Source: Nitrospiraceae bacterium
GTDB taxonomy: Bacteria; Nitrospirota; Nitrospiria; Nitrospirales; Nitrospiraceae
Reading direction: 5' to 3'
DNA: 45,931 nucleotides
NCBI GenBank assembly: GCA_041491905.1
Contig: JBGPVY010000001.1
Coordinates: 1 to 45,931 of the forward strand
Of the stretch, positions 11,668 through 32,412 are shown piece after piece; position 1 is the stretch's first letter, and each line of letters opens with the position of its first letter. The notes beneath the pieces are model-generated. The model was not told the DNA's origin. It was given only the letters and a program-made list of their open reading frames with translations, and did no database searches. Position numbers and translations under genes: made by a program.

Positions 11668-11738
11668 GGTTTCCTCCTCCTGTGTGAGATGGCGCTGCCT
11701 CAGCAAACCAAAGAGTCGCGGCTTTGAAGGAGCGCGAG

Positions 11739-13263: not shown

Positions 13264-13281
13264 GTCTGGTCTGAATTGCTC
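13264..13281 (-). promoter_or_regulatory. Stress-promoter element copy 2 (GAGCAATTCAGACCAGAC), reads toward 13154
   Basis: CATAAT at 13240-13245 at the fixed spacing. The whole leader is homologous to copy 4 (18041-18090). Confidence 0.6.
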
Positions 13282-13585: not shown

Positions 13586-15139
13586 ATGGCGCTCTTGATT
13601 CAGACAGTGCGCAGCGGGGACCCTCCTCCTCTCAAGTGTCAGTCGCTCACTCGCGTAGCCATTGCTTCCCGCGCCTCAGTGTTTTTCTTGGGTTCACTCC
13701 TGCTTCTGGTCTCAACTCCCGATATGGCGTGTTCTTATACCCAGGGCGATCTCTATCGCCAGGCCAAGGCGTCGACCGTTTTGATTGTGGGTATTAACGA
13801 TGAATCCAATGCCCTCTCGTTCGGCAGCGGTGTGTTCATCTCGGAGCAGGGCCTGGTCCTGACCAATGCCCACGTGGTGGAAGATTCCACCCGACTTTTT
13901 GTCTATATCCGCAATCAAGCAATCGATTCGGGGGCAACTGTACTTGCGATCGACTCCGATCTCGATCTCGCCGCACTCCGCATCCAAACAGACCGTCCGG
14001 TTCCGTTCCTTCGGTTGGCGGCGGACATTCCTGACGAAGGCACGCCGACGATCGCGGTCGGATATCCGCGTATATCAGATGTCTTACACATGGGATTGAC
14101 GCTGCATGCGTCGGTCATTCCGATGACGATTACCGGTGCGGCCATGGGACGGTCCAGAACGGCAGGGTTGCCGGTTCCCTTCGTGCAAACCGTGGGGATG
14201 TTGAACGCCGGGAGTAGCGGAGGGCCGCTGGTGGACAGCGAGACCGGTGAGCTCGCGGGGCTGGTCGTACATACCGTGCCCTATTTGGAGCAGGTCAAGA
14301 ATGATCGAGGCGAGCGGCTGGGCACGGCCATGATGCGAGCCGGCCTCAGTTATTCCATCCCTGTATCTCGGCTGCGCGACTGGTTACAGAAGAACCGCAT
14401 TCCCTTTCCGACGAAGCAGACGGGTGAGATTCCTTTCACACCACTAGAAAAGGAACGCCCAACTCGTGCATTTCTCACGACCGCGCACCTCCTTCATCTG
14501 ATGGCGGCGGTCCTGCACCAGGATCGCGATCTCCTGGATCTCGCCATTCAACATTATGAATCGGCCTTGCAACTCGAACCGGAACGGCCTGACGTCTTAC
14601 GGAATCTCGGGCTCGCGTTGGCGGCGACGGGAGAGACGGACCGGGCGCGAGTGACGTATGAGCGGGCCTTCGCCCACACACCGAACGATCCCGTGCTCTT
14701 AAAGAATATGGGCGAACTCCGGTATCGCCTGCGAGACCCTCAGGGAGCGGCGGAACTGTATCGAGCGGCCATTCGACAAGACGCCTGTTTGGTGAGCGCA
14801 TCCTTAGGGCTGGGCACGGTCCTACAGGCACAAGGTCAAGTGGAGGAAGCGAAGCAGGTCCTCAGGCGTGCAGCGGCCTGTCCGTCGTCTTCGTCCGATG
14901 CAGCCTATCACGTGGGCCTCGCGTTGGAGCAACAGGGGCTAGGACGCGATGCATTACAAGTATGGGAGGATGTTCTTGGGCAAACCCCTAGTGCCTCGGT
15001 CAACGAGCGGCCCATGCTCAATAAGATTCGGCAGCGAATCGCCCAACTTCGCGCCCAACTCACGGCCCAGGACCGAGGGGTCAATATGGTGCCGGTTGCC
15101 TCAAACGCACCATCCTCCGTGCCCAAAGACGCCCACTAA
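13586..15139 (+). CDS. Trypsin-like (S1C/DegP-type) serine protease fused to C-terminal TPR repeats
   Basis: LVLTNAHVV, DLDLAALRI and GSSGGPLVDSETGELAGLV give the His/Asp/Ser triad context. The C-terminal half has TPR-like AxxxYxxAL repeats. Confidence 0.85.
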   Translation: MALLIQTVRSGDPPPLKCQSLTRVAIASRASVFFLGSLLLLVSTPDMACSYTQGDLYRQAKASTVLIVGINDESNALSFGSGVFISEQGLVLTNAHVVEDSTRLFVYIRNQAIDSGATVLAIDSDLDLAALRIQTDRPVPFLRLAADIPDEGTPTIAVGYPRISDVLHMGLTLHASVIPMTITGAAMGRSRTAGLPVPFVQTVGMLNAGSSGGPLVDSETGELAGLVVHTVPYLEQVKNDRGERLGTAMMRAGLSYSIPVSRLRDWLQKNRIPFPTKQTGEIPFTPLEKERPTRAFLTTAHLLHLMAAVLHQDRDLLDLAIQHYESALQLEPERPDVLRNLGLALAATGETDRARVTYERAFAHTPNDPVLLKNMGELRYRLRDPQGAAELYRAAIRQDACLVSASLGLGTVLQAQGQVEEAKQVLRRAAACPSSSSDAAYHVGLALEQQGLGRDALQVWEDVLGQTPSASVNERPMLNKIRQRIAQLRAQLTAQDRGVNMVPVASNAPSSVPKDAH

Positions 15140-15209: not shown

Positions 15210-15229
15210 GTGTGGTCAAAATTGCTCAG
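15210..15229 (+). promoter_or_regulatory. Stress-promoter element copy 3, the only copy in inverted orientation relative to its nearest gene
   Basis: + strand reads gtGTGGTCAAAATTGCTCAG. Reading rightward, TATGGT (15251-15256) lies 21 nt after the dyad and precedes the ATG at 15297. Reading leftward there is no -10 (TTTTGA). Confidence 0.4.
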
Positions 15230-16612: not shown

Positions 16613-16646
16613 TTCTGCTGTGCCGAAATAGTTTATCCGCAGCCTG
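16613..16646 (-). repeat. Copy of the CAGGCTGCGGA.AA...TTTCGGCACAGCAGAA repeat
   Basis: Minus strand reads CAGGCTGCGGATAAACTATTTCGGCACAGCAGAA. Matches 18527-18560 and 32191-32225. Confidence 0.5.
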
Positions 16647-16656
16647 CCAGGTACAG

Positions 16657-16721: not shown

Positions 16722-17018
16722 CTACATCTTCGGCTTTGCTTGTTTAATGGACGATGCATGGCCCTTATCCGTGGCCTGGGCCTCGATCTTGTCACCCGCT
16801 TTGAAGGTGCCGTCCAGCTGAGAGGTCTTGTCCACATGCAGACGGACTTCCTTGCCGGCCGTATCCTTCACCACGTAAAACTCCCCGTCGATCTTCAGCA
16901 GGTCCCCTTTGATCGTCTGGGTGCTTGGCTCGGCCATGTCACCAGCCGCGAATGAAAGGGATGCCATCCCGACACCGAGGATCATTGCGAACATGAACGG
17001 AACGATGAGCTTCTTCAT
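16722..17018 (-). CDS. Secreted single-module protein (same module family)
   Basis: AAGGAGG lies upstream of the ATG at 17018, followed by a signal peptide. IKGDLLKIDGEFYVVKDTAGKEVRLHVDKTSQLDGTFKAGDKIEAQA. Confidence 0.75.
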   Translation of the reverse strand: MKKLIVPFMFAMILGVGMASLSFAAGDMAEPSTQTIKGDLLKIDGEFYVVKDTAGKEVRLHVDKTSQLDGTFKAGDKIEAQATDKGHASSIKQAKPKM

Positions 17019-17111
17019 GACGGAACCTCCTTGTAAATGATTGCGTTGCATGCAATTGCGTTGACTCAGTCGTTTCGAACCGACACGAGCGATGCGCTTC
17101 CCAAGGCCTCC

Positions 17112-17670
17112 TCAGGCCTTCTCCTTCACCGTGAGATCGTGCTTCACAGACTTCACACCGGGGGATCTGCCGGGTGGTCCAGGACGCATTGGCACTGGCC
17201 ATGATGTCCCTTACCTCTCCGGTCAGCGAGACCACCCCCGCATTAGTCTGAACAGCAATATCGGCTTGCTTCAGATGTGCGTCCTTCGCGATGTGTTCCT
17301 TCACGCGTGTCGTGATGGCCTCATCCTTGTCCTCCACCGCGTCGCGAGTAGACGGGGCAACCACCTCAAGGTCGTTCTTCACCGTCTTGACGCCGTCGAG
17401 CATTTTGGTGATCTCCTCCGCCGCCTGCTTGGCCGCGTCGGAATCGACCTTCCCTCGGAGCATCACCCGTCCCTCTGTGGTCTCGACATCGATCTGTCGC
17501 CCTTTGACCCGGCCATCGGCAGCGAGGGCAATCTTGGTTTTCGCCGTCAGCCACGAGTCGTTGACCAGTGCCTTCTCTTTGGATACGTCAACGGCGGTGG
17601 CTGGCACCGCGATGAGTGCCGCCCCGACAACCAGAGCGGTGCAGAGCGTGACCAAATAGTGTGTCTTCAT
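17112..17670 (-). pseudogene. BON-domain protein with a +1 frameshift in a homopolymer 16 codons before the expected stop
   Basis: G5 run at 17160-17164 versus G4 in the paralog at 10813-10816. As written the ORF runs on to 16939 and overlaps the next gene. Removing one G restores ...WTTRQIPGVKSVKHDLTVKEKA* with a stop at 17112. Confidence 0.7.
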
Positions 17671-17734
17671 GATCTTCTACTTAACCGAAATGTGAACTTG
17701 CTCGGTGATCCAGCTCTCTCTTCATTACTTCCCG

Positions 17735-17962
17735 TCAGTGCGTCTTTTGTTTTGTGGCTTCCGGCTGAGACCGCTGATGCCACTGGTCCGCCCACTTCAT
17801 GAGCTCATCCTTTCTATCGCCATACCGTTCCTGGGCTTTGCCGACAAACTTGTCGTAGTTGCCTTCGATCTGCTGCAGGTCGTCATCGGTAAACTTGCCA
17901 TACTGCTGTTTCAGTTCACCTTTGAACTGCATCCATTTCCCCTTGAGTTGATCCGCATTCAT
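17735..17962 (-). CDS. CsbD-like general stress protein, third paralog
   Basis: MNADQLKGKWMQFKGELKQQYGKFTDDDLQQIEGNYDKFVGKAQERYG... Confidence 0.8.
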   Translation of the reverse strand: MNADQLKGKWMQFKGELKQQYGKFTDDDLQQIEGNYDKFVGKAQERYGDRKDELMKWADQWHQRSQPEATKQKTH

Positions 17963-18072
17963 AATATCTCCCTCCTGTGTGAGATCGCGATGTCTCCATG
18001 TTCGTTTCGATCTGTCACTGTCATCTCCAAACCTCCTCTCTTACGGCCATTATGGCGAGAAGACCGGCAGCG

Positions 18073-18090
18073 GTCTGGTCAAAATTGCTC
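18073..18090 (-). promoter_or_regulatory. Stress-promoter element copy 4 (GAGCAATTTTGACCAGAC), reads toward 17962
   Basis: CATAAT at 18049-18054 at the fixed spacing. Directly preceded by a crp 3' remnant. Confidence 0.6.
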
Positions 18091-18109
18091 AAGGGGAAAA
18101 AGTGATGCA

Positions 18110-18277
18110 GTTGCAACTCGCGGTTGTAGTCAATGAAGCCCGGTTTGCGGAACTTATTCATGAAGAAACCTACGCGAGCGCGCGTGGCCCCGACCATATC
18201 GGCCAGCGTGTCCTGACTGATCTTTGGAATGACCATCTCCGGCTTGCCTTCTTTCCCGAGGTGGGCAGCAACAGATC
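18110..18277 (-). pseudogene. 3'-terminal (HTH) remnant of a group-A crp paralog
   Basis: ..LLL(A)HLGKEGKPEMVIPKISQDTLADMVGATRARVGFFMNKFRKPGFIDYN.. with a 1-nt deletion at ctg(g)cccac. The N-terminal cNMP domain is absent. The ORF 18021-18236 is its residue. Confidence 0.6.
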
Positions 18278-18515
18278 ACATGCTCCTGCTGAATCGCCCG
18301 GGCAATGATTCGGTAGGATTCCAGCAGCACGCGGCCGTTTTCCAGAACACGCGGGTGAGTAAAGGATACAGTCTCGGTTCGGAGAAGACGACTTGCGCAG
18401 CCGCAAGACTTTCAGCATGCGGCTTGAGGCGTTCGACGCCGAAGAGCTCGGCGCGGATGGGCTCTTCCAAGTCAGGAACGATGCAACGGGTGGTCGGACT
18501 GTATTGATCGAGTGC
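18278..18515 (-). pseudogene. 5'-terminal remnant of a cyclic beta-1,2-glucan synthase / GH94-like (NdvB-type) gene
   Basis: DLEEPIRAELFGVERLKPHAESLAAAQ...LTRV / LENGRVLLESYRIIARAIQQEHVI (one frameshift). Resembles the N-termini of that family as I recall them. Breaks off at the junction with the crp remnant. Confidence 0.35.
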
Positions 18516-18527
18516 AGAGTGACTAGC

Positions 18528-18710
18528 AGGCTGCGGAAAAATCATTTCGGCACAGCAGAAATTCGATGGCCTGCACGTATGGGACAAGAGGAGAAAACCC
18601 CCGCCAGTCTCGCACATCTCGCGCGGCTATCCTGCGGGAGTGTTCTCCTGTTGTGCCACACGTGAGAGCCATCGAGGCTCTCGCGAGCCAGCAAAGTTTT
18701 TCCGCAGCCT
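18528..18710. mobile_element. 183-bp MITE-like / structured element with perfect 14-bp terminal inverted repeats
   Basis: AGGCTGCGGAAAAA at 18528-18541 and TTTTTCCGCAGCCT at 18697-18710. Internal hairpin GAGAGCC-atcga-GGCTCTC. Starts 1 nt after the DUF3309 stop codon. Confidence 0.5.
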
Positions 18711-18711
18711 T

Positions 18712-18864
18712 TTAAATCCGACCAGTCAGCAACAGCACGACCAAGACCAAGAGGACCAAGCTTAGCCCGCCGCTGGGGCCGTAACCCCAGCTCGCGCTGT
18801 AAGGCCAAGTAGGCAACGCGCCAACAAGGAATAGGATCAGGATAATGAGGAGTATGGTGCTCAT
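18712..18864 (-). CDS. DUF3309-family small membrane protein (50 aa)
   Basis: GGAGGTG lies 4 nt upstream of the ATG at 18864. MSTILLIILILFLVGALPTWPYSASWGYGPSGGLSLVLLVLVVLLLTGRI*. Not in the ORF track. Confidence 0.75.
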   Translation of the reverse strand: MSTILLIILILFLVGALPTWPYSASWGYGPSGGLSLVLLVLVVLLLTGRI

Positions 18865-19049
18865 ATATCACCTCCGTTTAAGAATGTTTTTGACCTAGTA
18901 TAATGCATTCAACCACCGGCCATGCTCTAACCTGACAGCCACATCTCTTGTAGTCTGTTCATAGTTCCTCGCAGTACGGAGTCAGGATCCTGGGGCCATC
19001 GGCTTCACCGAAAGGCGTTCTGACACTCGGGCATCAGACGACGTCAGGA

Positions 19050-19838
19050 TTGAGGCTGGATCTATTCTGCACCGAGCACGACTCGCAATCTGGTCAAAAT
19101 TGCTCGAATCGGAAGAATTACCAGGACCCATCAGGCGGTACCGTTCACTTGTTGGGACCTTTCAAAACGTGGCGAGGCTACCTGTTTTCGATCCTGATCA
19201 CGAGCGCGTGCGCGTGGGTCGAAGGTCTTGATATGGCAACGGGGCTGGTATTTTCTCTCGCGGCCTTGCTGGGAGATAGCGTGACGAGCTTCATCAAGCG
19301 GCGTTTTGGACTGGTCTCGGGAGGGCACGCTCCAGGTCTCGACCAGGTCCTTGAAAGCCTGCTCCCGATCCTCGTGGTGCAACACGGGTTTGATCTTGCC
19401 CAGTCGGGTATGCTCGGCGTCGTGATAACCTTCATCATCATCGGCCTCATCTTTTGGCGCTATTACCGCCCGTGTCCCTCGCCGACTAACCGTCCAGTAT
19501 GCCTTGCTGCGCATCTTCCGCATAAATTTTTCAACATGTGCAATTGTGAACAGATTGCAATCTATCTTTTCGGCATACTGCCGTTGACACTCACCGTCTG
19601 TCCAAGACCAGAAGGAGGCGACATCGTGACTTGCCGAGTGGCTCGGTTGTCCCACGACCTCTTCCGTATGGATCTGGCCTTCTGCTGTGAATGTGGTTCA
19701 GCGGATCTGGAGGCGTGCTACACCTCGAAAGCCCTGGGGCCGCATCTGTGCCCGATCTGCGCCCAGTCCAAGGTCGAGTGCGGAACGTGGATGGAAACCC
19801 GGACGCGATTGTCGATGAGGGAGCAGCCTGTCGCCTGA
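19050..19838 (+). CDS. CDP-archaeol-synthase-like (DUF46/CarS-type) membrane fragment continuing in frame into a Cys-rich tail; the N-terminus is probably missing
   Basis: KTWRGYLFSILITS...AALLGDSVTSFIKRRFGLVSGGHAPGLDQVLESLLP resembles the CarS C-terminal half. A GAAGGAGG-GTG at 19626 could start a separate 70-aa CxxC...CxxC protein. The listed 5' end overlaps promoter element 5. Confidence 0.35.
   Translation: MRLDLFCTEHDSQSGQNCSNRKNYQDPSGGTVHLLGPFKTWRGYLFSILITSACAWVEGLDMATGLVFSLAALLGDSVTSFIKRRFGLVSGGHAPGLDQVLESLLPILVVQHGFDLAQSGMLGVVITFIIIGLIFWRYYRPCPSPTNRPVCLAAHLPHKFFNMCNCEQIAIYLFGILPLTLTVCPRPEGGDIVTCRVARLSHDLFRMDLAFCCECGSADLEACYTSKALGPHLCPICAQSKVECGTWMETRTRLSMREQPVA
19088..19105 (-). promoter_or_regulatory. 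Stress-promoter element copy 5 (GAGCAATTTTGACCAGAT), reads toward the DUF3309 gene
   Basis: CAGAAT at 19064-19069 at the fixed spacing. About 200-nt leader to the ATG at 18864. Confidence 0.55.
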
Positions 19839-19902
19839 ACCGGCGCCGCTGCACCCAAGTGAACCTCAGATATGAGCGGAAAAGAAAAAAGAAGGAGGAC
19901 CT

Positions 19903-20142
19903 ATGATCTGTCAACGCTGCAGGGGACTGCTCGTCCGCGAAACCTTCGGTGACCTGAGAGAGGAAACAGGCTGCATGTGCCCGGCAACTCGATGCATCAA
20001 TTGTGGATATATCGAGGATTCCGTGGTTCGTGCCAATCGCCTCCGCCCTCCTGCGGCAAAACGGGCGGTGTCTCGTGGGATGGTCAAGAAGGAAGGAGTT
20101 GTACTCATAAAATCTCACGCTGAAGAGTATGCATCCATCTGA
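19903..20142 (+). CDS. Small zinc-ribbon-like protein
   Basis: GAAGGAGG lies upstream of the ATG. MICQRCRGLLVRE...CPATRCINCGYIED (CxxC...CxxC). Confidence 0.55.
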   Translation: MICQRCRGLLVRETFGDLREETGCMCPATRCINCGYIEDSVVRANRLRPPAAKRAVSRGMVKKEGVVLIKSHAEEYASI

Positions 20143-20331
20143 CGAGCGGAAGATCTTGCGGAGGGTGTATCTCCCGCCGATTTCATCCTGCGTCCTCACG
20201 CAGTCTCGACCTGTGGATCATGCATTGGCAGAGCCTACAGCGAGTGCTCATCTCACAGGCAACAATGACATGGGGTCATTGCGACGTGCAATGACCTCCG
20301 CAACCCTTTTTCCGATCTATGGAGGCATTCG

Positions 20332-20799
20332 ATGATGAACGACGGAACCGTGATACGAGGTGGCCATGAATCACACGTGCGGCGCGAACAGGGATCGTCC
20401 TTTTCTGAGCCGAGCGCAAAGGGTGCATCTGCGCGCTCGCGACCGGGTATTCTGATCTTTTCGCGTAGGCAGCAGTTGCTGCATATGAACAGCCGGGCCT
20501 TGGAATTGACCGGTCACCTCAATCAGGCGGAGATCAAATCAGTCCTCGATATCCGTTCGGCGCCGGTGCGCGTACTCAGTGCTCAGATCCAAGAGACGCT
20601 GGACCACCGCAGAGAAGCCAACATCTGGGAGATCTTCGAATTGAACCGCGTCATCTTTGAAACTGAGCGCAAGATCCTGGTTCGCGGATTCGGGCTGGCG
20701 GATCGGAATTCACGCGACGCCTCACGAGTCGTGATCGTGCTGGAGGAGCTTGGCCGTCGGCAGGAACACAAGGCTCAGCCGACGTACGCCGTCCCCTAG
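20332..20799 (+). CDS. Hypothetical protein, possibly PAS-like sensor fold
   Basis: GGAGG lies upstream. GILIFSRRQQLLHMNSRALELTGH...KILVRGFGL is reminiscent of PAS cores. No output domain. Confidence 0.45.
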   Translation: MMNDGTVIRGGHESHVRREQGSSFSEPSAKGASARSRPGILIFSRRQQLLHMNSRALELTGHLNQAEIKSVLDIRSAPVRVLSAQIQETLDHRREANIWEIFELNRVIFETERKILVRGFGLADRNSRDASRVVIVLEELGRRQEHKAQPTYAVP

Positions 20800-20918
20800 A
20801 AATAAGCAGGACGTCGATCCAAAAGACGTGGTAGCTGAAGTGTGGAAATGGGAGTGTCCGGTCCTTCACCATCTTTGGATCGGATGGGAGGGGTAAGAAA
20901 CTCGGGAAGGAAATTCCC

Positions 20919-21290
20919 ATGATGAGGAAACACATTCTCGTGATCGACGACGATGCGGCTCTCCGGAGCTTGCTGAAGATGCGCCTAAAGAGTACTGGGC
21001 ACACCGTGGACACTGCCGAGACTGGCTGGGACGGTCTGAGCAAGCTCGAGCACGCAGACTATGACGTCGTGCTGCTCGACTATATGATGCCTGGGATTAC
21101 CGGCTTGACGGTCTTGCAGCACATCCAAGCGCGTCGTCCATCAGTACCAGTGGTCATGATGACAGGTCATACAAGCAGCCAGGTAGTGGCCCAGGCTCTC
21201 GCGGGAGGGGCGCGGGCTTGCCTGGTCAAACCTGTGGACCCTGTGGAGTTGGAGCAGGCCCTGCAGTGCTGTGCCGGAACGGCTGCGTAA
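20919..21290 (+). CDS. Single-domain response regulator (CheY-like receiver)
   Basis: ILVIDDD...DVVLLDYMMPGITGL...PVVMMTGH...ACLVKP. Confidence 0.85.
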   Translation: MMRKHILVIDDDAALRSLLKMRLKSTGHTVDTAETGWDGLSKLEHADYDVVLLDYMMPGITGLTVLQHIQARRPSVPVVMMTGHTSSQVVAQALAGGARACLVKPVDPVELEQALQCCAGTAA

Positions 21291-21827
21291 AAGCGGTCGT
21301 AGCAGGCTACACGAACGAAATCGAGGGAGACGCGACAGGTGATGAACCGATGAACATTTCTTTCGCGAACCGCCCGTGGGGCGAAAACAAATCAGGAGTT
21401 GAGGAGGAGTCAATGATGGAATCAGAGGAAGGCCAGCAGATATTTCACTTGAGGCCGGTCGGGCTCACGATTCCGGTTGAGGTGAGCAGATCGATCGCGT
21501 TCTGGCAGACGTCCAAACACAGATCGAGACTCTTCGGCAGAATAGGATAAATCTGAGGCCGGTGAGGGGGCAATTGGCCGGCATTGAAGCAAAGTGGAGA
21601 GGCGAATGAACGACGCCACCGTATCTGCATAATGGCCGTCGCGTCATACCTGCTTGGTTCTGGATTGGGAAAGGTATGACGGCACAAGGCCTCAATCCAA
21701 GCACACTGTGAACGCACCGCGTGACGATTGTCCTGCACGAGAAATAGCACGTTATGACGCGTCAGTGCGTTCGATCAGGCGAGGTGATATGACCTCCCAT
21801 GAACTACTATGAAAATATTTAAAAAGT

Positions 21828-21845
21828 GAGCAATTTTGAACAGAC
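21828..21845 (+). promoter_or_regulatory. Stress-promoter element copy 7 (GAGCAATTTTGAACAGAC), reads toward 21917
   Basis: CAAAAT at 21864-21869. Shares the leader ATCCTACAGGCA(A/G)AATG with copy 13. Confidence 0.6.
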
Positions 21846-21916
21846 GGCCAGTGATCCTACAGGCAAAATGGAATTGTATTTTTTGATGTCTTGTTTCTCA
21901 CCAGGAGGGATTAAAC

Positions 21917-22333
21917 ATGAGTACCCATATCCATGTCGGTGGGCTGTCCTACTTTTGTACCGATGACAAGCTCCGTCAGGCCTTCACCTCGTTTGGAACG
22001 GTGGTGTTCGCGCAAGTTCTGAGGGATGAGTGGGGCCATTCTCTCGGTCTCGGGATCGTGCACATGGCCTGTTCAGAGGACGTAGAGAGGGTCTTCAATG
22101 CGCGCCAGCGCTTTGAAGTATTGGGTTCGCGTGTAGATCTCTGGGAACCCGCAGAACCAGAGGCCTCCCAAGCTGAGCGGATGGTGGCCTATAATCTGCG
22201 AGAGATGCGAGATGTACAGGCGGGCCAAAACACGGGACATGAGAAGAGCCAGAGGGCGCTCCAACCCTTGGCGGCATTCATTCGTCGTCTCGTCCAGCCG
22301 CTGGTGTCCTCTTCCCGGACCGCCAAACAATAA
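21917..22333 (+). CDS. RRM-domain RNA-binding protein
   Basis: IHVGGLSYFCTDDKLRQAFTSFGTVVFAQVLRDEWGHSLGLGIVHM gives the RNP2/RNP1 pattern. AGGAGGG lies upstream. Confidence 0.8.
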   Translation: MSTHIHVGGLSYFCTDDKLRQAFTSFGTVVFAQVLRDEWGHSLGLGIVHMACSEDVERVFNARQRFEVLGSRVDLWEPAEPEASQAERMVAYNLREMRDVQAGQNTGHEKSQRALQPLAAFIRRLVQPLVSSSRTAKQ

Positions 22334-22555
22334 CATCCCTACAGCGTCGCCAGCAATCTTTCCCCACGTTCGAAATACTGGCCCCCTACTAGATTGCGTG
22401 TATTCTCACAGCCACGCGCACGATTCTCATATTGGTCGGCTACGTTCTCTCTTGCAAGGGAATGACTGGTTGGAACGGCATTAGGTTCACTCCTTCTCGC
22501 GGATCTTCACGCAGGGTCAGTGTCACGTGGCCAGCCTCATCAATTCTTCCAATCT

Positions 22556-22573
22556 GAGCACTTTTGACCAGAC
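22556..22573 (+). promoter_or_regulatory. Stress-promoter element copy 13 (GAGCACTTTTGACCAGAC), reads toward 22673
   Basis: CAGAAT at 22592-22597. AATTCTTC lies 14 nt upstream. Confidence 0.6.
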
Positions 22574-22672
22574 CTCCATTAATCCTACAGGCAGAATGTC
22601 GCGAATTCTCTGTGAGGCACGCCCTCGCCGTCAGTCTGAACCCAGAAGAGTGCTTTCCAAGGACCATACGCT

Positions 22673-23878
22673 GTGAACGGTATCACCGTAAATCCTGAAC
22701 CGCGGAGTATGCCGGCTAGCTCAGCAGGAGAATACCCTGCCATAGAGAGGACGCCGTTGCCGGACCCTGCTCATCTCTCCGACCGCGTGTCGATCGACAT
22801 GCAAGGCCTGGCATTGGCCATTGTGACGACAGTCGTCGTGGTCTTTGCGCTGCAGTGGGCAGAGAAGTTTTTTATACCGCTCCTGCTCGGAATCATCATT
22901 GCGTACACCCTCAATCCTCTCGTGGTGTGGCTGGAGCGGATTAAGATCCCTCGGGTGGTGGGTACCAGCATTGTAATGCTGGTTGTCCTGTGTGGGGGCG
23001 CCTTTGTGACGACCCCGCTGCGCGGCCAGATACAGACCATCCTCGATCAGTTGCCCGCAGCGGCCAGCAAATTGTCTGCCGCGCTCCTTAGCATGCGAGA
23101 GGGGCAGCCCAACACCATGCAGAAAGTGCAAGCCGCCGCGCGCGAGCTCGATAAGGCTACCAGCCAGGCGGCGGATATCCACTCGGAACCCAAGCCGCCT
23201 GCGACCCACATCGTCATTGACCAGCCCACATTCAAGCTGGGCGACTTCTTGATGGCAGGTTCCATGGGAATGTTTGGATTTATCAGCCAAGCGGCCATGG
23301 TGGTTATTTTGGTCTTCTTTCTGTTACTAGCCGGCGACACGTTCAAACGTAAGCTGGTGCGTTTGACTGGCCCATCGCTGTCGAACAAAAAAATTACGGT
23401 GCACATCTTGGACGACATCAACGTGTCCATCCAGAGCTACATGTTCACGCTGTTGGTGGCCAACGTGCTTCTGGCACTCCTGACCTGGACCGCGTTCCGG
23501 TGGATCGGCTTGGACAATGCCGGCGGATGGGCGATCGCTGCGGGCGTCCTTCACGTTATTCCATACTTAGGGCCCGCACTGGTCGCGGGCGCGACGGGAA
23601 TGGTAGGCTTCATGCAATTTGACTCTTTCTGGATGGCGTTGGTGGTGTCGGGCAGCTCGCTGGCGATCGCCACCTTCGTTGGCATATTTGTCGTCACTTG
23701 GATGACCGGCAAAATCGCGAAAATGAATCCAGTGGCGGTATTTATTTCGTTGCTCTTCTGGGGATGGCTATGGGGGGTATGGGGGCTGCTGCTCGCGATT
23801 CCCATCGTTGGCATTGTGAAGGTGGTCTCCCAGCACATAGAAGAACTCCATCCCGTGGCTGAGTTACTAAAAAAATGA
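22673..23878 (+). CDS. AI-2E family transporter (PerM/UPF0118)
   Basis: Multi-TM protein. ...AAGVLHVIPYLGPALV...NPVAVFISLLFWGWLWGVWGLLLAIPIVGIVKVV is the family signature. GTG start, or the Met at 22709. Confidence 0.85.
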   Translation: MNGITVNPEPRSMPASSAGEYPAIERTPLPDPAHLSDRVSIDMQGLALAIVTTVVVVFALQWAEKFFIPLLLGIIIAYTLNPLVVWLERIKIPRVVGTSIVMLVVLCGGAFVTTPLRGQIQTILDQLPAAASKLSAALLSMREGQPNTMQKVQAAARELDKATSQAADIHSEPKPPATHIVIDQPTFKLGDFLMAGSMGMFGFISQAAMVVILVFFLLLAGDTFKRKLVRLTGPSLSNKKITVHILDDINVSIQSYMFTLLVANVLLALLTWTAFRWIGLDNAGGWAIAAGVLHVIPYLGPALVAGATGMVGFMQFDSFWMALVVSGSSLAIATFVGIFVVTWMTGKIAKMNPVAVFISLLFWGWLWGVWGLLLAIPIVGIVKVVSQHIEELHPVAELLKK

Positions 23879-24750
23879 AGGCGTCCCTCCATACGATGTC
23901 GTGTCATCTGCATACCGTGGCGGGCCGTCGTGGGGCCTGCACCGGCCTCGCGGTCCTCATGGCGCTCACCGCGCTCGTGTCCGCGCCTGCAGATGCCACT
24001 CCTGTCGTGGTGCGGTTTCCGGAGGGCATGGCGCACGGCTTTCTTCTCGTGCGGTCGCTTGCCGGGGAGATCATTGGCCAAGGTGAGATGACCCAAGTCG
24101 TCAAAGAGGGCGATCTGGTCGAAAGCCATTTGGTCTTTGAATTCAAGGACGGCTCTCTACACGATGAGAAAGTGACCTTCTCGCAACAGCGTGTGTTTAC
24201 AATGCTCCGCTATCACCTGGTCCAGCACGGCCCGTCGTTTCCGGACCAGATCGAGGTCTCGATAGACCGCAGTACGGCGGAATACAAGGTTCGATCAAGT
24301 ACGGAGGAGGATGGGAAGGAGGAGGTGCTGACCGGAGCGTTTGCTCTGCCCAAGGATGTGTACAACGGCATCTTTGTCACGATGTTGCTGAACCTGCCGA
24401 AAGGCGCCAGTGAAACGGTGAACTTTCTCGCCTTCACGCCGAAGCCAGAGGTCATCAAACTGGAACTGCTTCTGATGGGTGAGCAGACCGTCCGCATAGG
24501 CGACCTGTCACGTAAGGTGCTGCAGTACGTCTTCAAGCCGGACATCGGAACGATTCGGGAGTTGATCGGCAAGGCCACCGGCCAGATCCCGGCCCAGTTT
24601 CACTATGACTGTTGGATCCTGGCCGATGAGGTGCCGAGTTTCGTGCAATTTGAAGGGCCCTTGCAACTCATGGGGCCGATCATACGAATTGAACTTGTGA
24701 GCCCGCGCTTGCTGACAAAGCCCGAAGACAAGAAAATTTCTTCAAAATAA
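23875..24750 (+). CDS. Hypothetical secreted protein, translationally coupled (ATGA) to the AI-2E transporter
   Basis: Signal-like LAVLMALTALVSAPADA. I recognise no family. Confidence 0.55.
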   Translation: MKASLHTMSCHLHTVAGRRGACTGLAVLMALTALVSAPADATPVVVRFPEGMAHGFLLVRSLAGEIIGQGEMTQVVKEGDLVESHLVFEFKDGSLHDEKVTFSQQRVFTMLRYHLVQHGPSFPDQIEVSIDRSTAEYKVRSSTEEDGKEEVLTGAFALPKDVYNGIFVTMLLNLPKGASETVNFLAFTPKPEVIKLELLLMGEQTVRIGDLSRKVLQYVFKPDIGTIRELIGKATGQIPAQFHYDCWILADEVPSFVQFEGPLQLMGPIIRIELVSPRLLTKPEDKKISSK

Positions 24751-24787
24751 CGTTGGCTCGGTCATTTCCGATCATTCCGAACATCAG

Positions 24788-24935
24788 CCATACAACGTTG
24801 GCTGGCATGAATAGGCACGAGATGCTCATGCTGCAGTTTCTTCACGAACAGGTCCTGAAAGTCGGGCCTCATTGACTACTACCGTGGCTTGCACACAGGT
24901 TTCCGTATTTGTGCGGATCGTCGTGCAAGGGCAGA
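24788..24935 (+). pseudogene. Heavily decayed 3' remnant of a group-A crp paralog
   Basis: Nucleotide similarity to 44800-44945. Reads FFTNRS*KSGLIDYYRGLH.. versus FFMNRFRKLGFIYYNGGLH.. Lies immediately upstream of element copy 8. Confidence 0.4.
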
Positions 24936-24966
24936 GATAAGCGGCCTGCCTCTTCCCTTCCGAACT

Positions 24967-24984
24967 GAGCAATTTTGACCAGAC
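24967..24984 (+). promoter_or_regulatory. Stress-promoter element copy 8 (GAGCAATTTTGACCAGAC), reads toward crp paralog 25155
   Basis: TATCCT at 25003-25008 at the fixed spacing. Confidence 0.6.
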
Positions 24985-25154
24985 TACACATGATGGAACC
25001 CTTATCCTGGCCAAGGATCAACATTTTGAGGCCGTGAACGGCCGAGGTTCGGGACCTCATGACCAGTACCCAAGCGGCCTGGACCAACTGGCATGCGACG
25101 GAATTGTGTTGCTGACCGTGTGGGCGAAGACTGCGTAGAGGACTTGGAGCAAAT

Positions 25155-25889
25155 ATGAACAGAATGCGAACGACATCGCGAACAGAAACATGCACTGTCG
25201 TCGGACTCCTTCCTGACAAGAAAATAAGAAGGCCCGCGGCTGGAACACTAGCCACACCGTTCAATCCCCAGACCTTTCTTGCCAAAGTTGGCCACGGCAA
25301 GACGACGTTGCAGGCCCTCAAGGAGCAGCTGATTTTTTCGCAAGGGGATGCGGCCGATGCCGTGTTTTATGTGCAGGCGGGCCGGGTCAAGCTCACCGTG
25401 CTCTCGCAGCAGGGTAAAGAAGCGGTCGTCGGGATTCTCGAGCAGGGCAGCTTCTTTGGTGAAGGCTGCCTCGTCGGGCAGCTGGCATGCATGGCGACCG
25501 CCACCGCACTGGACGCATCCACGATCGTGCGCATTGGGAAGGCGGCCATGATCCGTGTGCTCCACGATGAGTCCAGCTTCTCCGAGCTGTTTATGGCCTA
25601 TCTGCTGTCTCGCAATGTGCGTATCCAAGCGGACTTAGTTGATCATCTCTTCAATTCGGCCGAGAAGCGGCTGGCGCGGATCCTCCTGTTGCTGGCCCAT
25701 TATGGGAAAGAAGGCAAGCCGGAGCCGGTCATTCCGAAGATCAGCCAGGACACGCTGGCCGACATGATCGGCACCACGCGCTCCCGCGTCAGTTTATTTC
25801 TGAATAAGTTCAGAAAGCTGGGCTTCATTCACTACAACGGCAGAATGGAAGTGCACAGTTCACTCCTTAACATTGTCCTCCACGACTAG
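25155..25889 (+). CDS. Crp/Fnr-family transcriptional regulator, paralog group A
   Basis: TPFNPQTFLAKVGHGKTTL..AVFYVQAGRVKLTVLSQQGKEAVVGILEQGSFFGEGCL..TTRSRVSLFLNKFRKLGFIHYNG. The N-terminal extension is uncertain. Confidence 0.9.
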   Translation: MNRMRTTSRTETCTVVGLLPDKKIRRPAAGTLATPFNPQTFLAKVGHGKTTLQALKEQLIFSQGDAADAVFYVQAGRVKLTVLSQQGKEAVVGILEQGSFFGEGCLVGQLACMATATALDASTIVRIGKAAMIRVLHDESSFSELFMAYLLSRNVRIQADLVDHLFNSAEKRLARILLLLAHYGKEGKPEPVIPKISQDTLADMIGTTRSRVSLFLNKFRKLGFIHYNGRMEVHSSLLNIVLHD

Positions 25890-25964
25890 TTCCCCTTGAT
25901 GAGGCTTCGTTGATTTCGCGCAGGGGCACAGCTAAGCGGTCTTCCATATTAATTCCTCACACAT

Positions 25965-25982
25965 GAGCTATTTTGACCAGAT
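25965..25982 (+). promoter_or_regulatory. Stress-promoter element copy 9 (GAGCTATTTTGACCAGAT), about 75 nt after the crp stop, reads toward 26244
   Basis: TAGCTT at 26002-26007 (1-nt offset). About 260-nt leader. Confidence 0.5.
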
Positions 25983-26243
25983 TCCCGTCCCTCCAGGGGC
26001 GTAGCTTTGAACCTGTAATGGGTCATCAAGTCCTCGCGAATTTATCACGGTAGTAGAGTGAAGGATTGTGATCGTCAGGATGGAACCGATGGAAATTCAG
26101 TTCGTTGTATTGCAGATGATCTTCGTGACGAGGCAGCTTGTTGTGCTTAGTGACTGATGCAGGGCCGGGATGAATTCGTACAGGCCGCCAAACGTCTCAC
26201 GGCGGCAATCAGGAAGGTGTTAACTTAACACGAGAGGCTTGCC

Positions 26244-27014
26244 ATGCAATCACATCTTACTTCATGGATTGTTGTTCTCGGAATGGCTACCGTAGTGACT
26301 GGATGCGCCTCGATGAAGTCCTCAGGCGGGGCGATGATGGTTGATCAGGCGGGCCATCATCAGCTGAAAAGTCCACCGGTGATTATCGCCACCGTGGATG
26401 ACGTCACACGAGTGGGGCTATCCGAATACTCCCCCACTGAATCGGTGAAAAACACGATCACCGATGTACTCTCCATCCTCGGGAATGAGGCACTGAGGGA
26501 GCCGGGCCGGTCTGAGGAACGCCGCCAACAAATTGAGCAAGTCATCAGACAACGCGTCAACGTTTTGCAAATGGCCCAACGCTCTCTGGGGTCTCCTTGG
26601 ACAAGACTCAATGACGCGGAGCGACTGGAGTTTGTGAGCCTTTTCGTCGAGTTGATACGAGACACGGTTGCCAACAAGATTGACCAATATTACGACGAAC
26701 AGGTTTTCTATCTCGTTGAACAACGTGAGGGCAGCTTTGCCCAGGTCAGAACCAATTTGACTGGCCCGAAGGTTGATACCTCGGTAGATTTCCGCTTAGA
26801 GAACCAATCCGGCGAATGGCTCGTGTACGACGTAGTCATTGACGGCGCCAGCATCGTGAGGAACTACCGGACACAGTTTAGTCGAATTATCCGCGATAGC
26901 GCCTACGCGGGACTAACGGAGAAGATGAAGCAGAGGGCACACACCGTGAAATGGTTTGAAAAGACCGCACCCGCCATAGCGCTGTTGCCGACGGACACAT
27001 CCGACTCTCGATAA
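26244..27014 (+). CDS. MlaC/Ttg2D-like phospholipid-binding periplasmic lipoprotein
   Basis: Lipobox VVTGC. FVSLFVELIRDTVANKIDQYYDEQVFYLVEQREGSFAQVRTNL...WLVYDVVIDGASIVRNYRTQF. Confidence 0.75.
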   Translation: MQSHLTSWIVVLGMATVVTGCASMKSSGGAMMVDQAGHHQLKSPPVIIATVDDVTRVGLSEYSPTESVKNTITDVLSILGNEALREPGRSEERRQQIEQVIRQRVNVLQMAQRSLGSPWTRLNDAERLEFVSLFVELIRDTVANKIDQYYDEQVFYLVEQREGSFAQVRTNLTGPKVDTSVDFRLENQSGEWLVYDVVIDGASIVRNYRTQFSRIIRDSAYAGLTEKMKQRAHTVKWFEKTAPAIALLPTDTSDSR

Positions 27015-27062
27015 GTGAGGATGCAATTTCGTCTACGGAAGGTGACGATCACGATTCGTCCT

Positions 27063-27797
27063 CTAGTACTTGTCCCTGTTATGCCACATCAGCCCAAAGA
27101 CGAACAGTTGGCTGTCGTAATTCCCTCGGATATCACTAAACGTGATCGTCGCACGGTTGAATTTGAATTCGCCAAAGAACGCCCATTGCGGCGACAACGC
27201 GTACCGGGCGCCTGCGATGAGATTAAAGCCAGGACTGATATGGGCGTTCGATAGCCCATCCTTGGAACTGGTGGCAAAGAACAATCCGTATCCCATTCCG
27301 CCATAGGGTTGAAATACCTCGGACAGGGACGGGGACCGGATGATGAGATCGACCGCCCACGTCGTGAGCTGAAGGGGGATGGGCCCGATATTTTCGGCAA
27401 ATACTGTCCGTGATGACGTGCCTCCTACAATCGTCTGTGCTTTCACGGTTGGTTTCAGTGTGTACACATCTGTTTCAAGTCCCAGCCAGGGACGCCCCTC
27501 AAAGAAATAGCCCGCCTTTGCACCCCCGACGAGAGTACTCTTGAGTTCGAGATCATTCAGGCGGGCGTCGGTCACAACACTCCCTCCCACGGTCAGATTG
27601 GACACCGTGACATTCGAGAACGCCCCGGGATTGGCAATCCCTCCATACCCACCGAGATACCACTCCGCTTGAGTCTTGGTTGCGAGAAGACCACTCACCG
27701 TGACACTCCACGCCAGGAGCAGCCCACCAGTGATCCAAGGCCTTGCGGATCTCAAACGGATTGTGTTCATGATGCCTCTTCGGTGAAGGCTCACCAC
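27063..27797 (-). CDS. Outer-membrane beta-barrel protein (OmpW/porin-like small barrel)
   Basis: Signal peptide, alternating beta pattern, glycine/aromatic girdles. Ends ..LFVFGLMWHNRDKY. Confidence 0.7.
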   Translation of the reverse strand: MVSLHRRGIMNTIRLRSARPWITGGLLLAWSVTVSGLLATKTQAEWYLGGYGGIANPGAFSNVTVSNLTVGGSVVTDARLNDLELKSTLVGGAKAGYFFEGRPWLGLETDVYTLKPTVKAQTIVGGTSSRTVFAENIGPIPLQLTTWAVDLIIRSPSLSEVFQPYGGMGYGLFFATSSKDGLSNAHISPGFNLIAGARYALSPQWAFFGEFKFNRATITFSDIRGNYDSQLFVFGLMWHNRDKY

Positions 27798-27877
27798 AAA
27801 TCCGCAAACATTTAGTAGCTAACGTAGCGTAGGCCTTATTATAAAATCAAGGATCGGAAGACCTAAGAAACCGACTA

Positions 27878-28120
27878 CTCTTTAACTCTAGCGAGAAGCG
27901 GCTGGCGCAGGTGCAGCTGGTAATGGCCCACTTTGGGGAAGAAGGTAGGCCGGAGGCGGTCATTGCGAAGATCAGTTCGGACAAGCTGGCTAAGATGATC
28001 GACACCAGGCGCTCACGGGTGAGCTTCTTCCTGAATAAGTTCCGGAAGATGGGCTTCATTGACTACAACGACGGGGTGTACGTATACAGATCCGTCCTCA
28101 CTATCGTCCTGCACGGCTAG
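27878..28120 (+). pseudogene. HTH-only 3' remnant of a crp paralog, still an open frame (GTG 27911, 69 aa)
   Basis: LFNSSEKRLAQVQLVMAHFGEEGRPEAVIAKISSDKLAKMIDTRRSRVSFFLNKFRKMGFIDYNDGVYVYRSVLTIVLHG*. Homology begins abruptly at about 27878. The cNMP domain is absent. Confidence 0.65.
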
Positions 28121-28165
28121 TCCCCTTATTACCGCCAATCTTGGCGTCATCAATACTTGCCACCT

Positions 28166-28183
28166 GAGCAATTTTGACCAGAC
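28166..28183 (+). promoter_or_regulatory. Stress-promoter element copy 10 (GAGCAATTTTGACCAGAC), reads toward 28239
   Basis: ATAGAT at 28202-28207. The leader is homologous to copy 11. Confidence 0.6.
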
Positions 28184-28238
28184 AGGAATCTGTCTTGTCG
28201 GATAGATGTAACCGCAATACTCGCACGATTGGTCTTTC

Positions 28239-28955
28239 ATGCCTAACCGTAGGGTACTGGTCCACCGTACCGCCGTCTTAGGGCTTCTGCTTCTCGCAGC
28301 CATGGCCATGCAGGGCTGCCTAGCCATTGTGTGGCTGGGCGCTGTTGGGATTGATGTGACCCGGACCAGTGACATTGAGTTCCAGTCATTCGAGAACTCG
28401 TGGGTGGTTGGACCGCAAGAGCGGCAGCACCTGGCATAGGTGAAGAGCATCGCGGTGACGCCGTTCGTCGGAGATCCGGTGATGGCTTAGCGGTGGACCG
28501 CTGTTTTTCGAGAAACGACTGATCTTCGCGTGGTGAGCCCGTCCGACGCGACCCTGGATGAGATATCCGACTACGGGCAGATAGGGCTGGCACAGCGGAT
28601 GGGCGCGGAGCTTCATGTGGATTGTGTGCTGTTCGGGAGTGTGGCCGGTCAAGAGCCACAGAAAGGCTTTATGGGATTAAAGGAGAGTTCCTCGCGGAGG
28701 CTGTACCTGCATCTGGTGAGTGCAGAAGGGACCCTCATGTGGAAGACTGAGCTGCCCTATACGATTGTCAAGGGGGCCAAGGATCTGGATGAAGAAATCG
28801 TGACGAAGGCTCTCCTGACTCATGTAAGAGCACACGCGAACGAGCTTGAGTTGGCTGAACTGGGAGCAACAACCATGCAGGCTGCGTCAGGATCCTTGCG
28901 TGATGCGTCCGATTATCAAATGGCACGTCCTTTACCGGGGTTCGAGCGTCCATGA
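28239..28955 (+). pseudogene. Lipoprotein reading frame interrupted by two in-frame TAG codons (28437, 28488)
   Basis: A single frame reads MPNRR..LLLAAMAMQGC...QERQHLA-TAG-VKSIAVTPFVGDPVMA-TAG-RWTAVFRETTDLRVVSPSDATLDEISDYG... The inter-stop peptide looks like a genuine KSIAVxPF beta-strand motif. Confidence 0.55.
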
Positions 28956-29054
28956 TGGCCATATCAATCTATGCACCGTCTGCCTTGAATGAAGCATCGT
29001 TGATTTCGCGCTGAGCGAGCGTCAAGCTGTCTCTCGGAAAAATTCTTCAAATGT

Positions 29055-29072
29055 GAGCAGTTTTGAACAGAT
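29055..29072 (+). promoter_or_regulatory. Stress-promoter element copy 11 (GAGCAGTTTTGAACAGAT), reads toward 29145
   Basis: ATAAAT at 29091-29096. AATTCTTC lies 14 nt upstream. Confidence 0.6.
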
Positions 29073-29144
29073 TGCAGTCTGTCTAGTTGGATAAATTTAA
29101 CCTGAATATACACACGAATGGGCGTGTGTCCAAAGGAGGAAACC

Positions 29145-32022: not shown

Positions 32023-32190
32023 ATGTTGTACTACGCGTTGATGTTCTTGCTGCTCGGCTTTGTGGCGGCCGCTCTGGGTCTGTCAGGAATCGCTGCGGTC
32101 GCGACGCAGATTTCCTGGGTGTTATTCGTGGTTGGAATTGTGCTCCTGATCATTCACGTGGCGAAAGGCCGCACGCCTCGAGTGACCTAG
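32023..32190 (+). CDS. DUF1328 (YtjA-like) small membrane protein, 55 aa
   Basis: AAAGGAG lies 6 nt upstream of the ATG. MLYYALMFLLLGFVAAALGLSGIAAVATQISWVLFVVGIVLLIIHVAKGRTPRVT*. Not in the ORF track. Confidence 0.75.
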   Translation: MLYYALMFLLLGFVAAALGLSGIAAVATQISWVLFVVGIVLLIIHVAKGRTPRVT

Positions 32191-32412
32191 CAGGCTGCGG
32201 AAACCTATTTCGGCACAGCAGAAAATCGAGGGTCGGCACGTCCGGGACAAGACCCCCCCTGCCGGATAGCCGCGCTCGACAGGCAAGACCGGCGGAACAG
32301 GCGAGACACTCAGTCGAGGCTTGGGCCTGTTCAGATGCTCGCGGCTCCCCGAAGCGATGCTCCTCACGAGAACCTCACTCTCGCCAGCCTTATCTCAATC
32401 CCGCAGCGGGAC
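32191..32412 (+). repeat. Composite copy of the repeat family, starting at the base after the DUF1328 stop codon
   Basis: 32191-32253 matches 18527-18593. 32258-32312 matches the reverse complement of 3590-3645. Possible degenerate right end aatCCCGCAGCggg at about 32398. Confidence 0.4.

Follow-up and report, generated by a model that had tools for sequence, protein, structure and literature searches.

The question raised by this locus is how an 18-nucleotide (nt) promoter-like element came to stand at 14 places in one stretch of Nitrospira DNA, in part directly behind pieces of the 3' end of a crp gene. The stretch analysed, referred to as the window, comprises 45,931 nt of contig JBGPVY010000001.1 (assembly GCA_041491905.1, Nitrospiraceae bacterium), and its left two thirds are a stress-type gene island of a Nitrospira genome. 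At up to three mismatches, the window contains 14 matches to the element, TGAGCAATTTTGACCAGA, against 0.03 expected; the 13 copies listed by the first-pass annotation of this DNA were all found again, and that list was one short (38091-38108, minus strand). The same annotation had proposed that the promoters spread by duplication of a unit made up of the crp 3' end, the promoter and a new target, and did not originate 13 times independently. Common descent is borne out by the spacers and tails that the copies share; an already truncated cassette is not supported. The crp tails are eroding pseudogene remnants, not a travelling tail-plus-promoter cassette, and as such are largely ordinary. The best explanation, which is regarded as probable though well short of assured, is that crp was duplicated together with its promoter and that the redundant crp copies were eroded to promoter-adjacent 3' tails.

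crp tails and post-crp spacers in the window

The fragments were recovered by blastn of the three intact paralogues (crpA, crpB and crpC) against the window, and their extension at the protein level was done by tblastn (Table 1). The crp 3' pieces previously reported before copies 10, 8 and 4 were all obtained, with blastn E values from 5e-51 to 2e-11. Fragment 10 (tblastn E 1e-33, reaching 27857 at the protein level) has an open frame of 80-88 codons to the normal stop, with 65% amino acid (aa) identity to crpB; the N-terminal domain is missing (about 157 N-terminal codons are gone) and there is no convincing start codon. Fragment 4, which reaches 18386 at the protein level (crpB aa 142-234, E 7e-23), is interrupted by an in-frame stop and heavily decayed in its 5' part, and the deletion of the last ~35 nt of crp and of the whole spacer makes it abut copy 4. 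The piece before copy 8, described earlier as decayed with stops, does contain a stop codon and is out of register. The element core lies 14-72 nt downstream of the end of each fragment and in equal orientation, and the chance of one fragment being so placed is about 14x50/(2x45931) = 0.008. Just upstream of fragment 4, positions 18395-18520 (minus strand) translate to ...EEPIRAELFGVERLKPHAESLAAAQ and resemble the N-terminal stub of an unrelated gene, for which no paralogue was found in the window or in the fetched loci.

The fragments differ in both of their boundaries. The 5' ends lie at crp nt ~424, ~472 and 571 for fragments 4, 10 and 8, respectively, and at the 3' end fragment 10 is complete through the stop codon, fragment 4 lacks ~35 nt and fragment 8 lacks ~40 nt. 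Identity between fragments is 62-66%, against 75-78% for fragment 10 and 65-70% for fragments 4 and 8 when compared with crpA, crpB and crpC, and the synonymous divergence (dS) of fragment 10 is 0.60 to crpB and 0.39 to crpC. No fragment is a recent copy of the neighbouring crpB. With differing 5' boundaries and no clade of fragments (62-66% versus up to 78%), the claim that crp tail, promoter and target were copied as one unit is not sustained. For the branch leading to fragment 10, a three-taxon Nei-Gojobori estimate gave a nonsynonymous divergence (dN) of ~0.15, a dS of ~0.32 and an omega of ~0.47, which are indicative values from 80 codons; the non-coding junction region at fragment 10 is ~24% diverged between the window and the relative L006. 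These values would fit a sequence that first belonged to a working gene and has decayed more or less neutrally from around the time L006 split off. Gene conversion refreshing fragment 10 was considered, and the longest-identical-run test gave no signal of it (P 0.24-1.0); the signals of the same test for fragment 4 reflect uneven decay.

The second line of evidence is the spacer behind crp. Copy 9 begins 74 nt past the stop codon of the intact crpB, in agreement with the ~75 nt given before, and a match to this crpB spacer lies before copy 11 (28983-29079, 72% over 97 nt, E 4e-8; z 9.8, 0/200 shuffles), with a further, shortened one found by blastn before copy 8. The 14-mer of the post-stop spacer, noted earlier as recurring before copy 11, was located at 25908-25921 and 28998-29011, 1-2 nt off the coordinates first given. 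An nhmmer spacer profile was then built from the window and the relatives, omitting the core and the preceding 15 nt. The top five hits of this profile in the window were all directly upstream of an element and in the correct orientation, including sp9 (25890-25946, E 8.2e-14), which is itself among the profile-building sequences. The flank of copy 2 is identical at 27/31 positions to the spacer that follows the crp tail at element 4 of the relative L044 (0/1000 shuffles), and copies 13 and 8 align from -56 to +18 (E 2e-9). Spacer remains are thus present at copies 9, 11, 8, 2 and 13, in shortened form at copy 10, and at copy 4 in L044. At least five to seven of the 14 promoters carry the post-crp spacer and therefore descend from a crp-spacer-promoter progenitor; three copies also keep crp coding sequence, and therefore it was a progenitor of crp, spacer and promoter that was multiplied.

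Two weaker crp traces had also been pointed out, and both were assessed by 50 local alignments of flanks against tails with dinucleotide shuffles, together with tblastn. The IVLHEK* trace before copy 7 (21727-21747, plus strand) gave z 3.3 and no tblastn hit, and the flank holding the 11-mer trace before copy 13 gave z 2.1 and nothing by tblastn. Unrelated pairs in the same 50-test table reached similar scores (element 6 flank with fragment 8, z 3.6; element 3 flank with fragment 10, z 3.6), and the 11-mer, which occurs exactly twice in the window, is estimated to be a ~0.06 event given free choice of word and flank. The crp-tail similarity therefore stands above background for the three tails and for the spacer of copy 11, and not for the traces before copies 7 and 13.

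Table 1. Coordinates of crp genes, crp fragments, spacers, element copies and repeats in the window
Feature	Position	Strand	Description
crpA	886-1542	-	intact paralogue, convergent with neighbour; element absent downstream
crpB	25155-25889	+	intact Crp/FNR-family regulator, 244 aa; Pfam cNMP_binding and HTH_Crp_2
crpC	44295-44948	+	intact paralogue, followed by convergent gene; element absent downstream
Fragment 4	18105-18386	-	crp nt 424-700; blastn 18274-18106(-) vs crpB nt 532 to ~700, E 1e-42 to 1e-46
Fragment 8	24768-24894	+	heavily decayed; crp nt 571 to ~697, blastn E 2e-11
Fragment 10	27857-28120	+	crp nt ~472-735 including stop; blastn 27878-28127 vs crpB nt 493-743, 77%, E 5e-51
sp8	24915-24950	+	spacer remnant, nhmmer profile E 1.3e-4
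sp9	25890-25963	+	crpB post-stop spacer, reference member of the family
sp10	28121-28164	+	shortened; starts TCCCCTT like sp9 (first 7-8 nt kept), internal deletion
sp11	28979-29053	+	post-crp spacer without crp upstream in the window; blastn E 4e-8, nhmmer E 3.5e-10
Copy 2 core and spacer remnant	13265-13325	-	core 13265-13282; remnant 13300-13325, nhmmer E 0.5 (weak)
Copy 4 core	18074-18091	-	predicted promoter of csbD paralogue (17735-17962)
Copy 13 and possible spacer trace	22506-22572	+	trace 22506-22535, nhmmer E 0.8 (weak), correct offset; core 22555-22572
Copy 8 core	24966-24983	+	172 nt upstream of crpB start
Copy 9 core	25964-25981	+	predicted promoter of mlaC (26244-27014)
Copy 10 core	28165-28182	+	element match
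Copy 11 core	29054-29071	+	element match
Element copies, minus strand (starts)	12768, 13265, 15211, 18074, 19089, 38091	-	
Element copies, plus strand (starts)	19537, 21827, 22555, 24966, 25964, 28165, 29054, 31885	+	
Copy 10 target gene	28239-28955	+	split into open reading frames (ORFs) of 66 aa (28239-28439) and 141 aa (28530-28955); in-frame stops
TTTTCCGCAGCCTGCTAG copies	872-889, 3531-3548, 16633-16650, 18523-18540, 18698-18715, 32187-32204, 44101-44118		

Age, erosion and mosaic flanks of the sites in relatives

Relatives were sought by a scan of species-representative genomes with the AI-2E transporter of the window (22673-23878) as the query. The nearest matches were Nitrospira and Nitrospirota metagenome-assembled genomes (MAGs) with 73-89% aa identity, none of them identical, and an exact-protein look-up for strain-level variants gave solely short contigs identical to the window. 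The element is kept at orthologous positions in nine related Nitrospira loci (designated by L numbers), and in metagenomic contigs it is also found near crp homologues.

L001, L002, L003, L006, L164 and L166 also have fragment 8 and copy 8, and there the fragment meets gene X (23875-24750), which lies upstream, at the junction seen in the window; the junction of fragment 10 with the divergent promoter region of the outer-membrane protein (OMP) gene is also present in L006, where the remainder of the tail is deleted. L006 is the most distant syntenic relative, with a crpB dS to the window of ~0.7. These junctions are common to distant relatives and the tails are therefore old. At the same site, fragment 10 measures 264 nt in the window, 84 nt in L168 and ~30 nt in L006, and it is absent in L001, L044 and L164; the 84-nt relic of L168, where the OMP gene is lost, is 80% identical to the window fragment and 64-70% identical to other crp tails. 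At the site of copy 4, crp nt 424-700 adjoin the element directly in the window, L044 has the last ~110 nt of crp, the stop codon and a 75-nt spacer, and L001 has a phosphodiesterase gene and a PepSY gene with no crp sequence. Had the copies been lineage-specific insertions, as was to be checked by synteny, empty sites would be expected; the junctions of fragments 8 and 10 are shared with L006, and close relatives differ by losses, not by empty sites. The fragments thus combine homology to an intact paralogue, lost coding integrity and further erosion specific to lineages, as pseudogene relics do.

The formation of such a tail can be followed at the crpB site. Downstream of gene X, L044 and L039 have kept just ~95 nt from the 3' end of crpB, after which come the spacer, the element and the gene targeted by copy 10, and at that position a complete crpB is found in the window and as its orthologues in L001, L002, L006 and L164-L168. 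When L044 and L039 are compared with crpB and its surroundings in L001, identity is 84% over tail, spacer and element together, 88% over the spacer alone and 88% for the flanking gene. A full-length crp also stands directly upstream of the copy-10 promoter in L164-L167, with a tail 95-97% identical to crpB, and directly upstream of the spacer orthologous to sp11 (copy 11) in L001 and L087. That the crp of L164 and L166 is a chimera of crpB and fragment 10 was rejected, as its tail is 95-97% identical to crpB and 77-78% to fragment 10. Full-length crp genes at the sites in relatives, proposed at the outset as the observation that would speak for independent decay instead of cassette spread, were therefore encountered for the crpB site (against L044 and L039) and for copies 10 and 11; for fragments 4, 8 and 10 themselves, none of the relatives was found to carry a full-length ancestor at the corresponding site.

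Tandem arrays of full-length crp, element and crp occur in the metagenomic contigs L085, L119 and L098. In L166, positions 11261-11432 after a histidine-kinase gene hold a crp 3' relic (the last ~36 codons) that is split by an insert of ~64 nt with hairpin potential, and no element follows this relic within 270 nt, even at six mismatches. This relic stands without an element, and decay of crp is therefore general and not tied to promoters; together with the tandem arrays it marks whole-gene duplication followed by decay as a general habit of this crp family. A crp relic upstream of crpC, suggested by the arrays in L085, was looked for and none was found. A metagenome scan with a crp tail as the query returned full-length-scoring matches alone, from diverse taxa, a sample in which truncated tails are under-sampled. 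The contrast between 8/69 full-length genes and 6/6 tails that are followed by an element is biased by the choice of loci and was not relied on.

What is conserved at these sites was seen from the flanks. The copy-10 promoter and its gene stand behind four upstream contexts, namely full crpB (L164-L167), a crpB stub (L044, L039), fragment 10 (window, L168) and the spacer alone after unrelated sequence (L169), and therefore the conserved unit is the promoter with the downstream gene, and the crp-derived flank varies. Flank histories switch at the element core. Copy 4 has a crp tail upstream, and on its downstream side (core position 0 to +394, 398 nt) its paralogue is copy 2 (csbD); copy 11 matches copy 9 over -70 to +25 and copy 10 over 0 to +67, and paralogous homology begins exactly at core position 0 in the pairs 2/4, 10/11 and 7/13. 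Synteny with relatives ends 1-70 nt upstream of the cores: at -1 in L044, L039 and L169 (resuming at 28164) and at -15 in L164 for copy 10, at -8, -5 and -30 for copy 7, at -15 and -26 for copy 4, and at -32 to -71 for copy 11. L001 lacks 25982-28982, a segment bounded by element/spacer repeats, and a direct repeat of the spacer's 5' half (25899-25923 and 28988-29012) flanks a 3.1-kb block that is missing in L001, L164 and L166. Recombination between repeated cores or spacers, or selection that keeps promoter and gene while the upstream DNA changes, would each account for this mosaic pattern.

An insert of 7.9 kb was observed between copy 8 and crpB in L002 (Nitrospira sp. RCB, 2577-10470). 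It is flanked by a ~135-nt duplication of copy-8 sequence, and within it lie further element regions, copied in inverted orientation, together with a group II intron reverse transcriptase/maturase.

Explanations for the origin of the tails

On the favoured explanation, duplication followed by erosion, the ancestral order would have been crp, a spacer of ~74 nt, the promoter and the next gene, and crp genes with their downstream promoters would have been multiplied by whole-gene or segmental duplication. Deletions would then have eroded the redundant crp copies, and the 3' tail and spacer next to the promoter would have persisted where deletions reaching a needed promoter were selected against, so that the survivor would always be a 3' tail abutting the promoter. 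Deletions, insertions and recombination with junctions at or just upstream of the core would further have re-assorted upstream flanks and downstream genes. Several points weigh against this explanation. Fragments 4, 8 and 10 could have been partial-gene duplications at birth. Several indels can be read in either direction, and the block of mlaC, OMP and fragment 10 may have been added in the lineage of the window or lost from L164, L166 and L044. Pseudogene tails recognisable over a dS of ~0.7 are long-lived for bacteria, which could hint at some function; the dN/dS of fragment 10 is based on 80 codons and includes a shared internal branch; and the relatives are all MAGs or metagenome contigs.

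The model of the first-pass annotation, in which a truncated unit, made up of 150-250 bp from the crp 3' end with spacer and promoter, was copied before new targets and full genes never stood there, does account for all three window fragments being 3' ends that abut a same-orientation element, for a spacer family that reaches copies without a tail, for the failure to find full-length ancestors where fragments 4, 8 and 10 lie, and for the direct spacer repeats around the 3.1-kb block. It is nevertheless judged distinctly improbable, since the 5' boundaries differ and the fragments are not each other's closest relatives, the ancient junctions are shared with distant relatives and erosion has progressed at the same sites, the crpB tail of L044 and L039 was made by deletion of a gene that is intact elsewhere, the downstream homology partners of the elements differ from the upstream ones, and the dN/dS of the fragment 10 branch is ~0.47 and not ~1. 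A somewhat unlikely, tentatively held proposal is that the cores with their spacers and tails are recombination substrates, at which crossovers and slipped deletions would insert, delete and swap promoter-first modules, the tails being by-products that lengthen the homology. The start of paralogy at core position 0, the synteny breaks just upstream of the cores, the indels bounded by element/spacer repeats (the loss in L001 and the insert with duplicated copy-8 sequence in L002) and the lack of an integrase or transposase in the window are all consistent with it; the same pattern, however, is given by passive selection for promoter and gene, most intergenic regions of the island hold an element so that any intergenic breakpoint would be close to one, stretches of identity reach just 18-28 nt, which is marginal for RecA-dependent recombination, and no recent event with identical junction repeats was caught. 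Retention of the tails for a function, with fragment 10 as a 65-69 aa winged-helix competitor or the tails as upstream promoter or terminator sequence, would agree with the open frame of fragment 10, in which GTG (27911) and ATG (27923) are possible starts, and with the persistence of tails over considerable divergence. This is very improbable in view of the stop codons in fragments 4 and 8 and of fragment 10 itself, in which the otherwise invariant recognition stretch GTTRSR is changed to DTRRSR, the Pfam HTH_Crp_2 score is below the cut-off (23.8 vs 27 bits), and the dimerisation helix and a clear ribosome-binding site are lacking, and of which most is gone in L168 and L006 and nothing is present in L001, L044 and L164.

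An extension of the recombination proposal, put forward as unlikely, is that cores with crp-derived spacers or tails act as portable recombination junctions, by which a Crp-controlled island would gain, lose and swap promoter-first modules without a dedicated recombinase. If true, homologous recombination would here do the work of a cassette system, and the regulator tails left behind would lengthen the homology and promote further shuffling.

Compared with known systems, the tails resemble bacterial gene relics in being truncated, stop-containing copies of an intact multi-copy gene with lineage-specific deletions at orthologous sites and, in one case (L044, L039), an intact orthologue elsewhere; unlike these, the window tails are all 3' ends beside a promoter still used by the next gene, and they persist over a dS of ~0.7. 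Putative mobile promoters, a form of promoter reuse (Matus-Garcia, Nijveen and van Passel 2012; summarised in PMC3575422), are defined by at least 80% identity over at least 50 nt before non-paralogous genes. The element likewise presents similar upstream sequences before non-homologous genes in one genome, which implies duplication over convergence, but its pairs are below this criterion, the best being 79.6%/54 nt (copies 2/11), 84%/44 nt (7/13) and 76.5%/68 nt (10/11), and its copies are old and give no sign of moving on their own. With Correia, ERIC and REPIN elements and integron cassettes the element shares the dispersal of a short repeat at the boundaries of variable gene modules, and it differs from them in that no integrase or transposase Pfam domain was found in any sizeable ORF of the window and that the element is never gained or lost without genes; its identification as a mobile element or integron site was rejected for the same reasons, the window having no recombinase and positions changing solely together with genes. 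A repeat search of the window found no terminal inverted repeats around the elements, and no target duplications were seen, for which no systematic search was made. On duplication followed by erosion, the locus would be a worked example of bacterial regulon growth, in which promoters were copied with the adjacent regulator gene and the redundant regulators decayed to stubs, and in which promoter-plus-gene modules were re-assorted between closely related genomes.

The element as a predicted promoter and other features of the window

Across the relatives, the consensus of 59 element copies is aattcttccaA.cTGAGCAATTTTGAcCAGAC...GgcAnaaTg. The first 16 nt of the element form an imperfect palindrome, TGAGCAA-TT-TTGACCA, in which 11/16 positions are symmetric as read from the sequence and whose length falls in the range of about 14-22 bp for a dyad-symmetric activator site, with an A/T-rich stretch directly upstream, and a -10-like hexamer (CAnAAT) begins at +37 from the core start in 32/59 copies. 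The palindrome centre is 29.5 bp upstream of this hexamer and would be at about -41.5 if the hexamer spans -12 to -7. In class II CRP/FNR-activated promoters, the activator site is centred near -41.5 and overlaps the -35 region. The element would have this geometry, with its 16-bp palindrome at a fixed distance from the hexamer, with a promoter-proximal half-site TTGACC that resembles a -35 hexamer, and with Crp-family genes that adjoin its sites and in some cases have a site upstream of themselves, and it is predicted to act as such a promoter. The FNR box is TTGAT-N4-ATCAA and the CRP box is TGTGA-N6-TCACA; the half-site of the element is TTG(A/C)(C/T)CA and so differs from both. A known RNA or riboswitch was rejected, Rfam having no match in the window.

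The crp paralogues of the island are likely, on circumstantial grounds, to be the putative activators of these promoters, and the recognition helices of the three intact paralogues are near-identical. Copy 8 is likely to be crpB's own predicted promoter. More widely, the element lies 58-300 nt upstream of the crp start in 13/66 full-length crp homologues from diverse soil and peat metagenomes, and 70-143 nt past the crp stop in merely 8/69 homologues (metagenome loci L085, L097, L103, L129, L131, L162 and others), which suggests that auto-regulation may be widespread in this Crp subfamily, well beyond Nitrospira. Naming of the Crp regulators was tried with NCBIfam and given up, as it yielded sub-threshold CRP, NtcA, FtrB and Fnr matches alone and no equivalog cut-off was reached.

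The literature search found no description of this motif or of its regulon in Nitrospira; a CRP/FNR regulon study that included one Nitrospira MAG used NnrR and FNR matrices from other organisms (PMC8510549). The element would therefore be a strong promoter/operator motif that is undescribed as far as the searched literature shows. With it, a candidate stress regulon under Crp control would be defined for Nitrospira, a nitrifier of environmental importance on which genetic work is difficult.

Two copies have unusual positions. The 14th copy (38091-38108, minus strand) is outside the stress island and upstream of a beta-ketoacyl synthase operon, in a cluster with MMPL, LolA-like, glycosyltransferase and AMP-ligase genes; the regulon may therefore extend to envelope lipid synthesis. 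Copy 3 (15211-15228, minus strand) is in a 112-nt gap between two plus-strand genes, antisense into a trypsin-TPR gene (13586-15139); it lacks a -10-like hexamer at the usual spacing, and no ORF stands out as its target. Among the listed homologues of the copy 10 target in other Nitrospira, most are single proteins of 238 aa, and the database cluster nearest to it, at 94% identity, likewise measures 141 aa; in this lineage the target is probably a pseudogene, or a gene that would need read-through.

By Pfam, the stress island contains csbD (three copies), BON-domain proteins, Dps/ferritin, Fe/Mn superoxide dismutase, OmpA-like proteins, an RRM RNA-binding protein, a response regulator, MlaC, an OMP beta-barrel and several Crp/FNR-family genes, and the right third of the window is a lipid or aryl-polyene-like biosynthesis cluster. 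The repeat search of the window found internal paralogy to be abundant in the stress island. The csbD-BON gene pairs are repeated at 10765-11706, 12891-13241 and 16939-17997 with 75-95% nucleotide identity, and the window start (1-180) cuts a further BON gene. A stand-alone response-regulator receiver gene (20919-21290) is present in the window and in L164-L167 and is missing in the close relative L001, where its flanks are contiguous.

A second repeat family, TTTTCCGCAGCCTGCTAG, has seven matches in the window against 0.02 expected. Two of its copies make a palindromic unit of ~183 nt with 77-nt arms at 18528-18710, and in L164 a complete copy of ~180 nt (6667-6845) directly follows the crpB stop, where other genomes have the plain spacer. 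This presence and absence is as would be expected from a miniature inverted-repeat transposable element (MITE) or a REPIN-like element, and the family, which is distinct from the promoter element, would thus be a MITE-like repeat that coexists with it in the window. One TTTTCCGCAGCCTGCTAG copy overlaps the stop codon of crpA.

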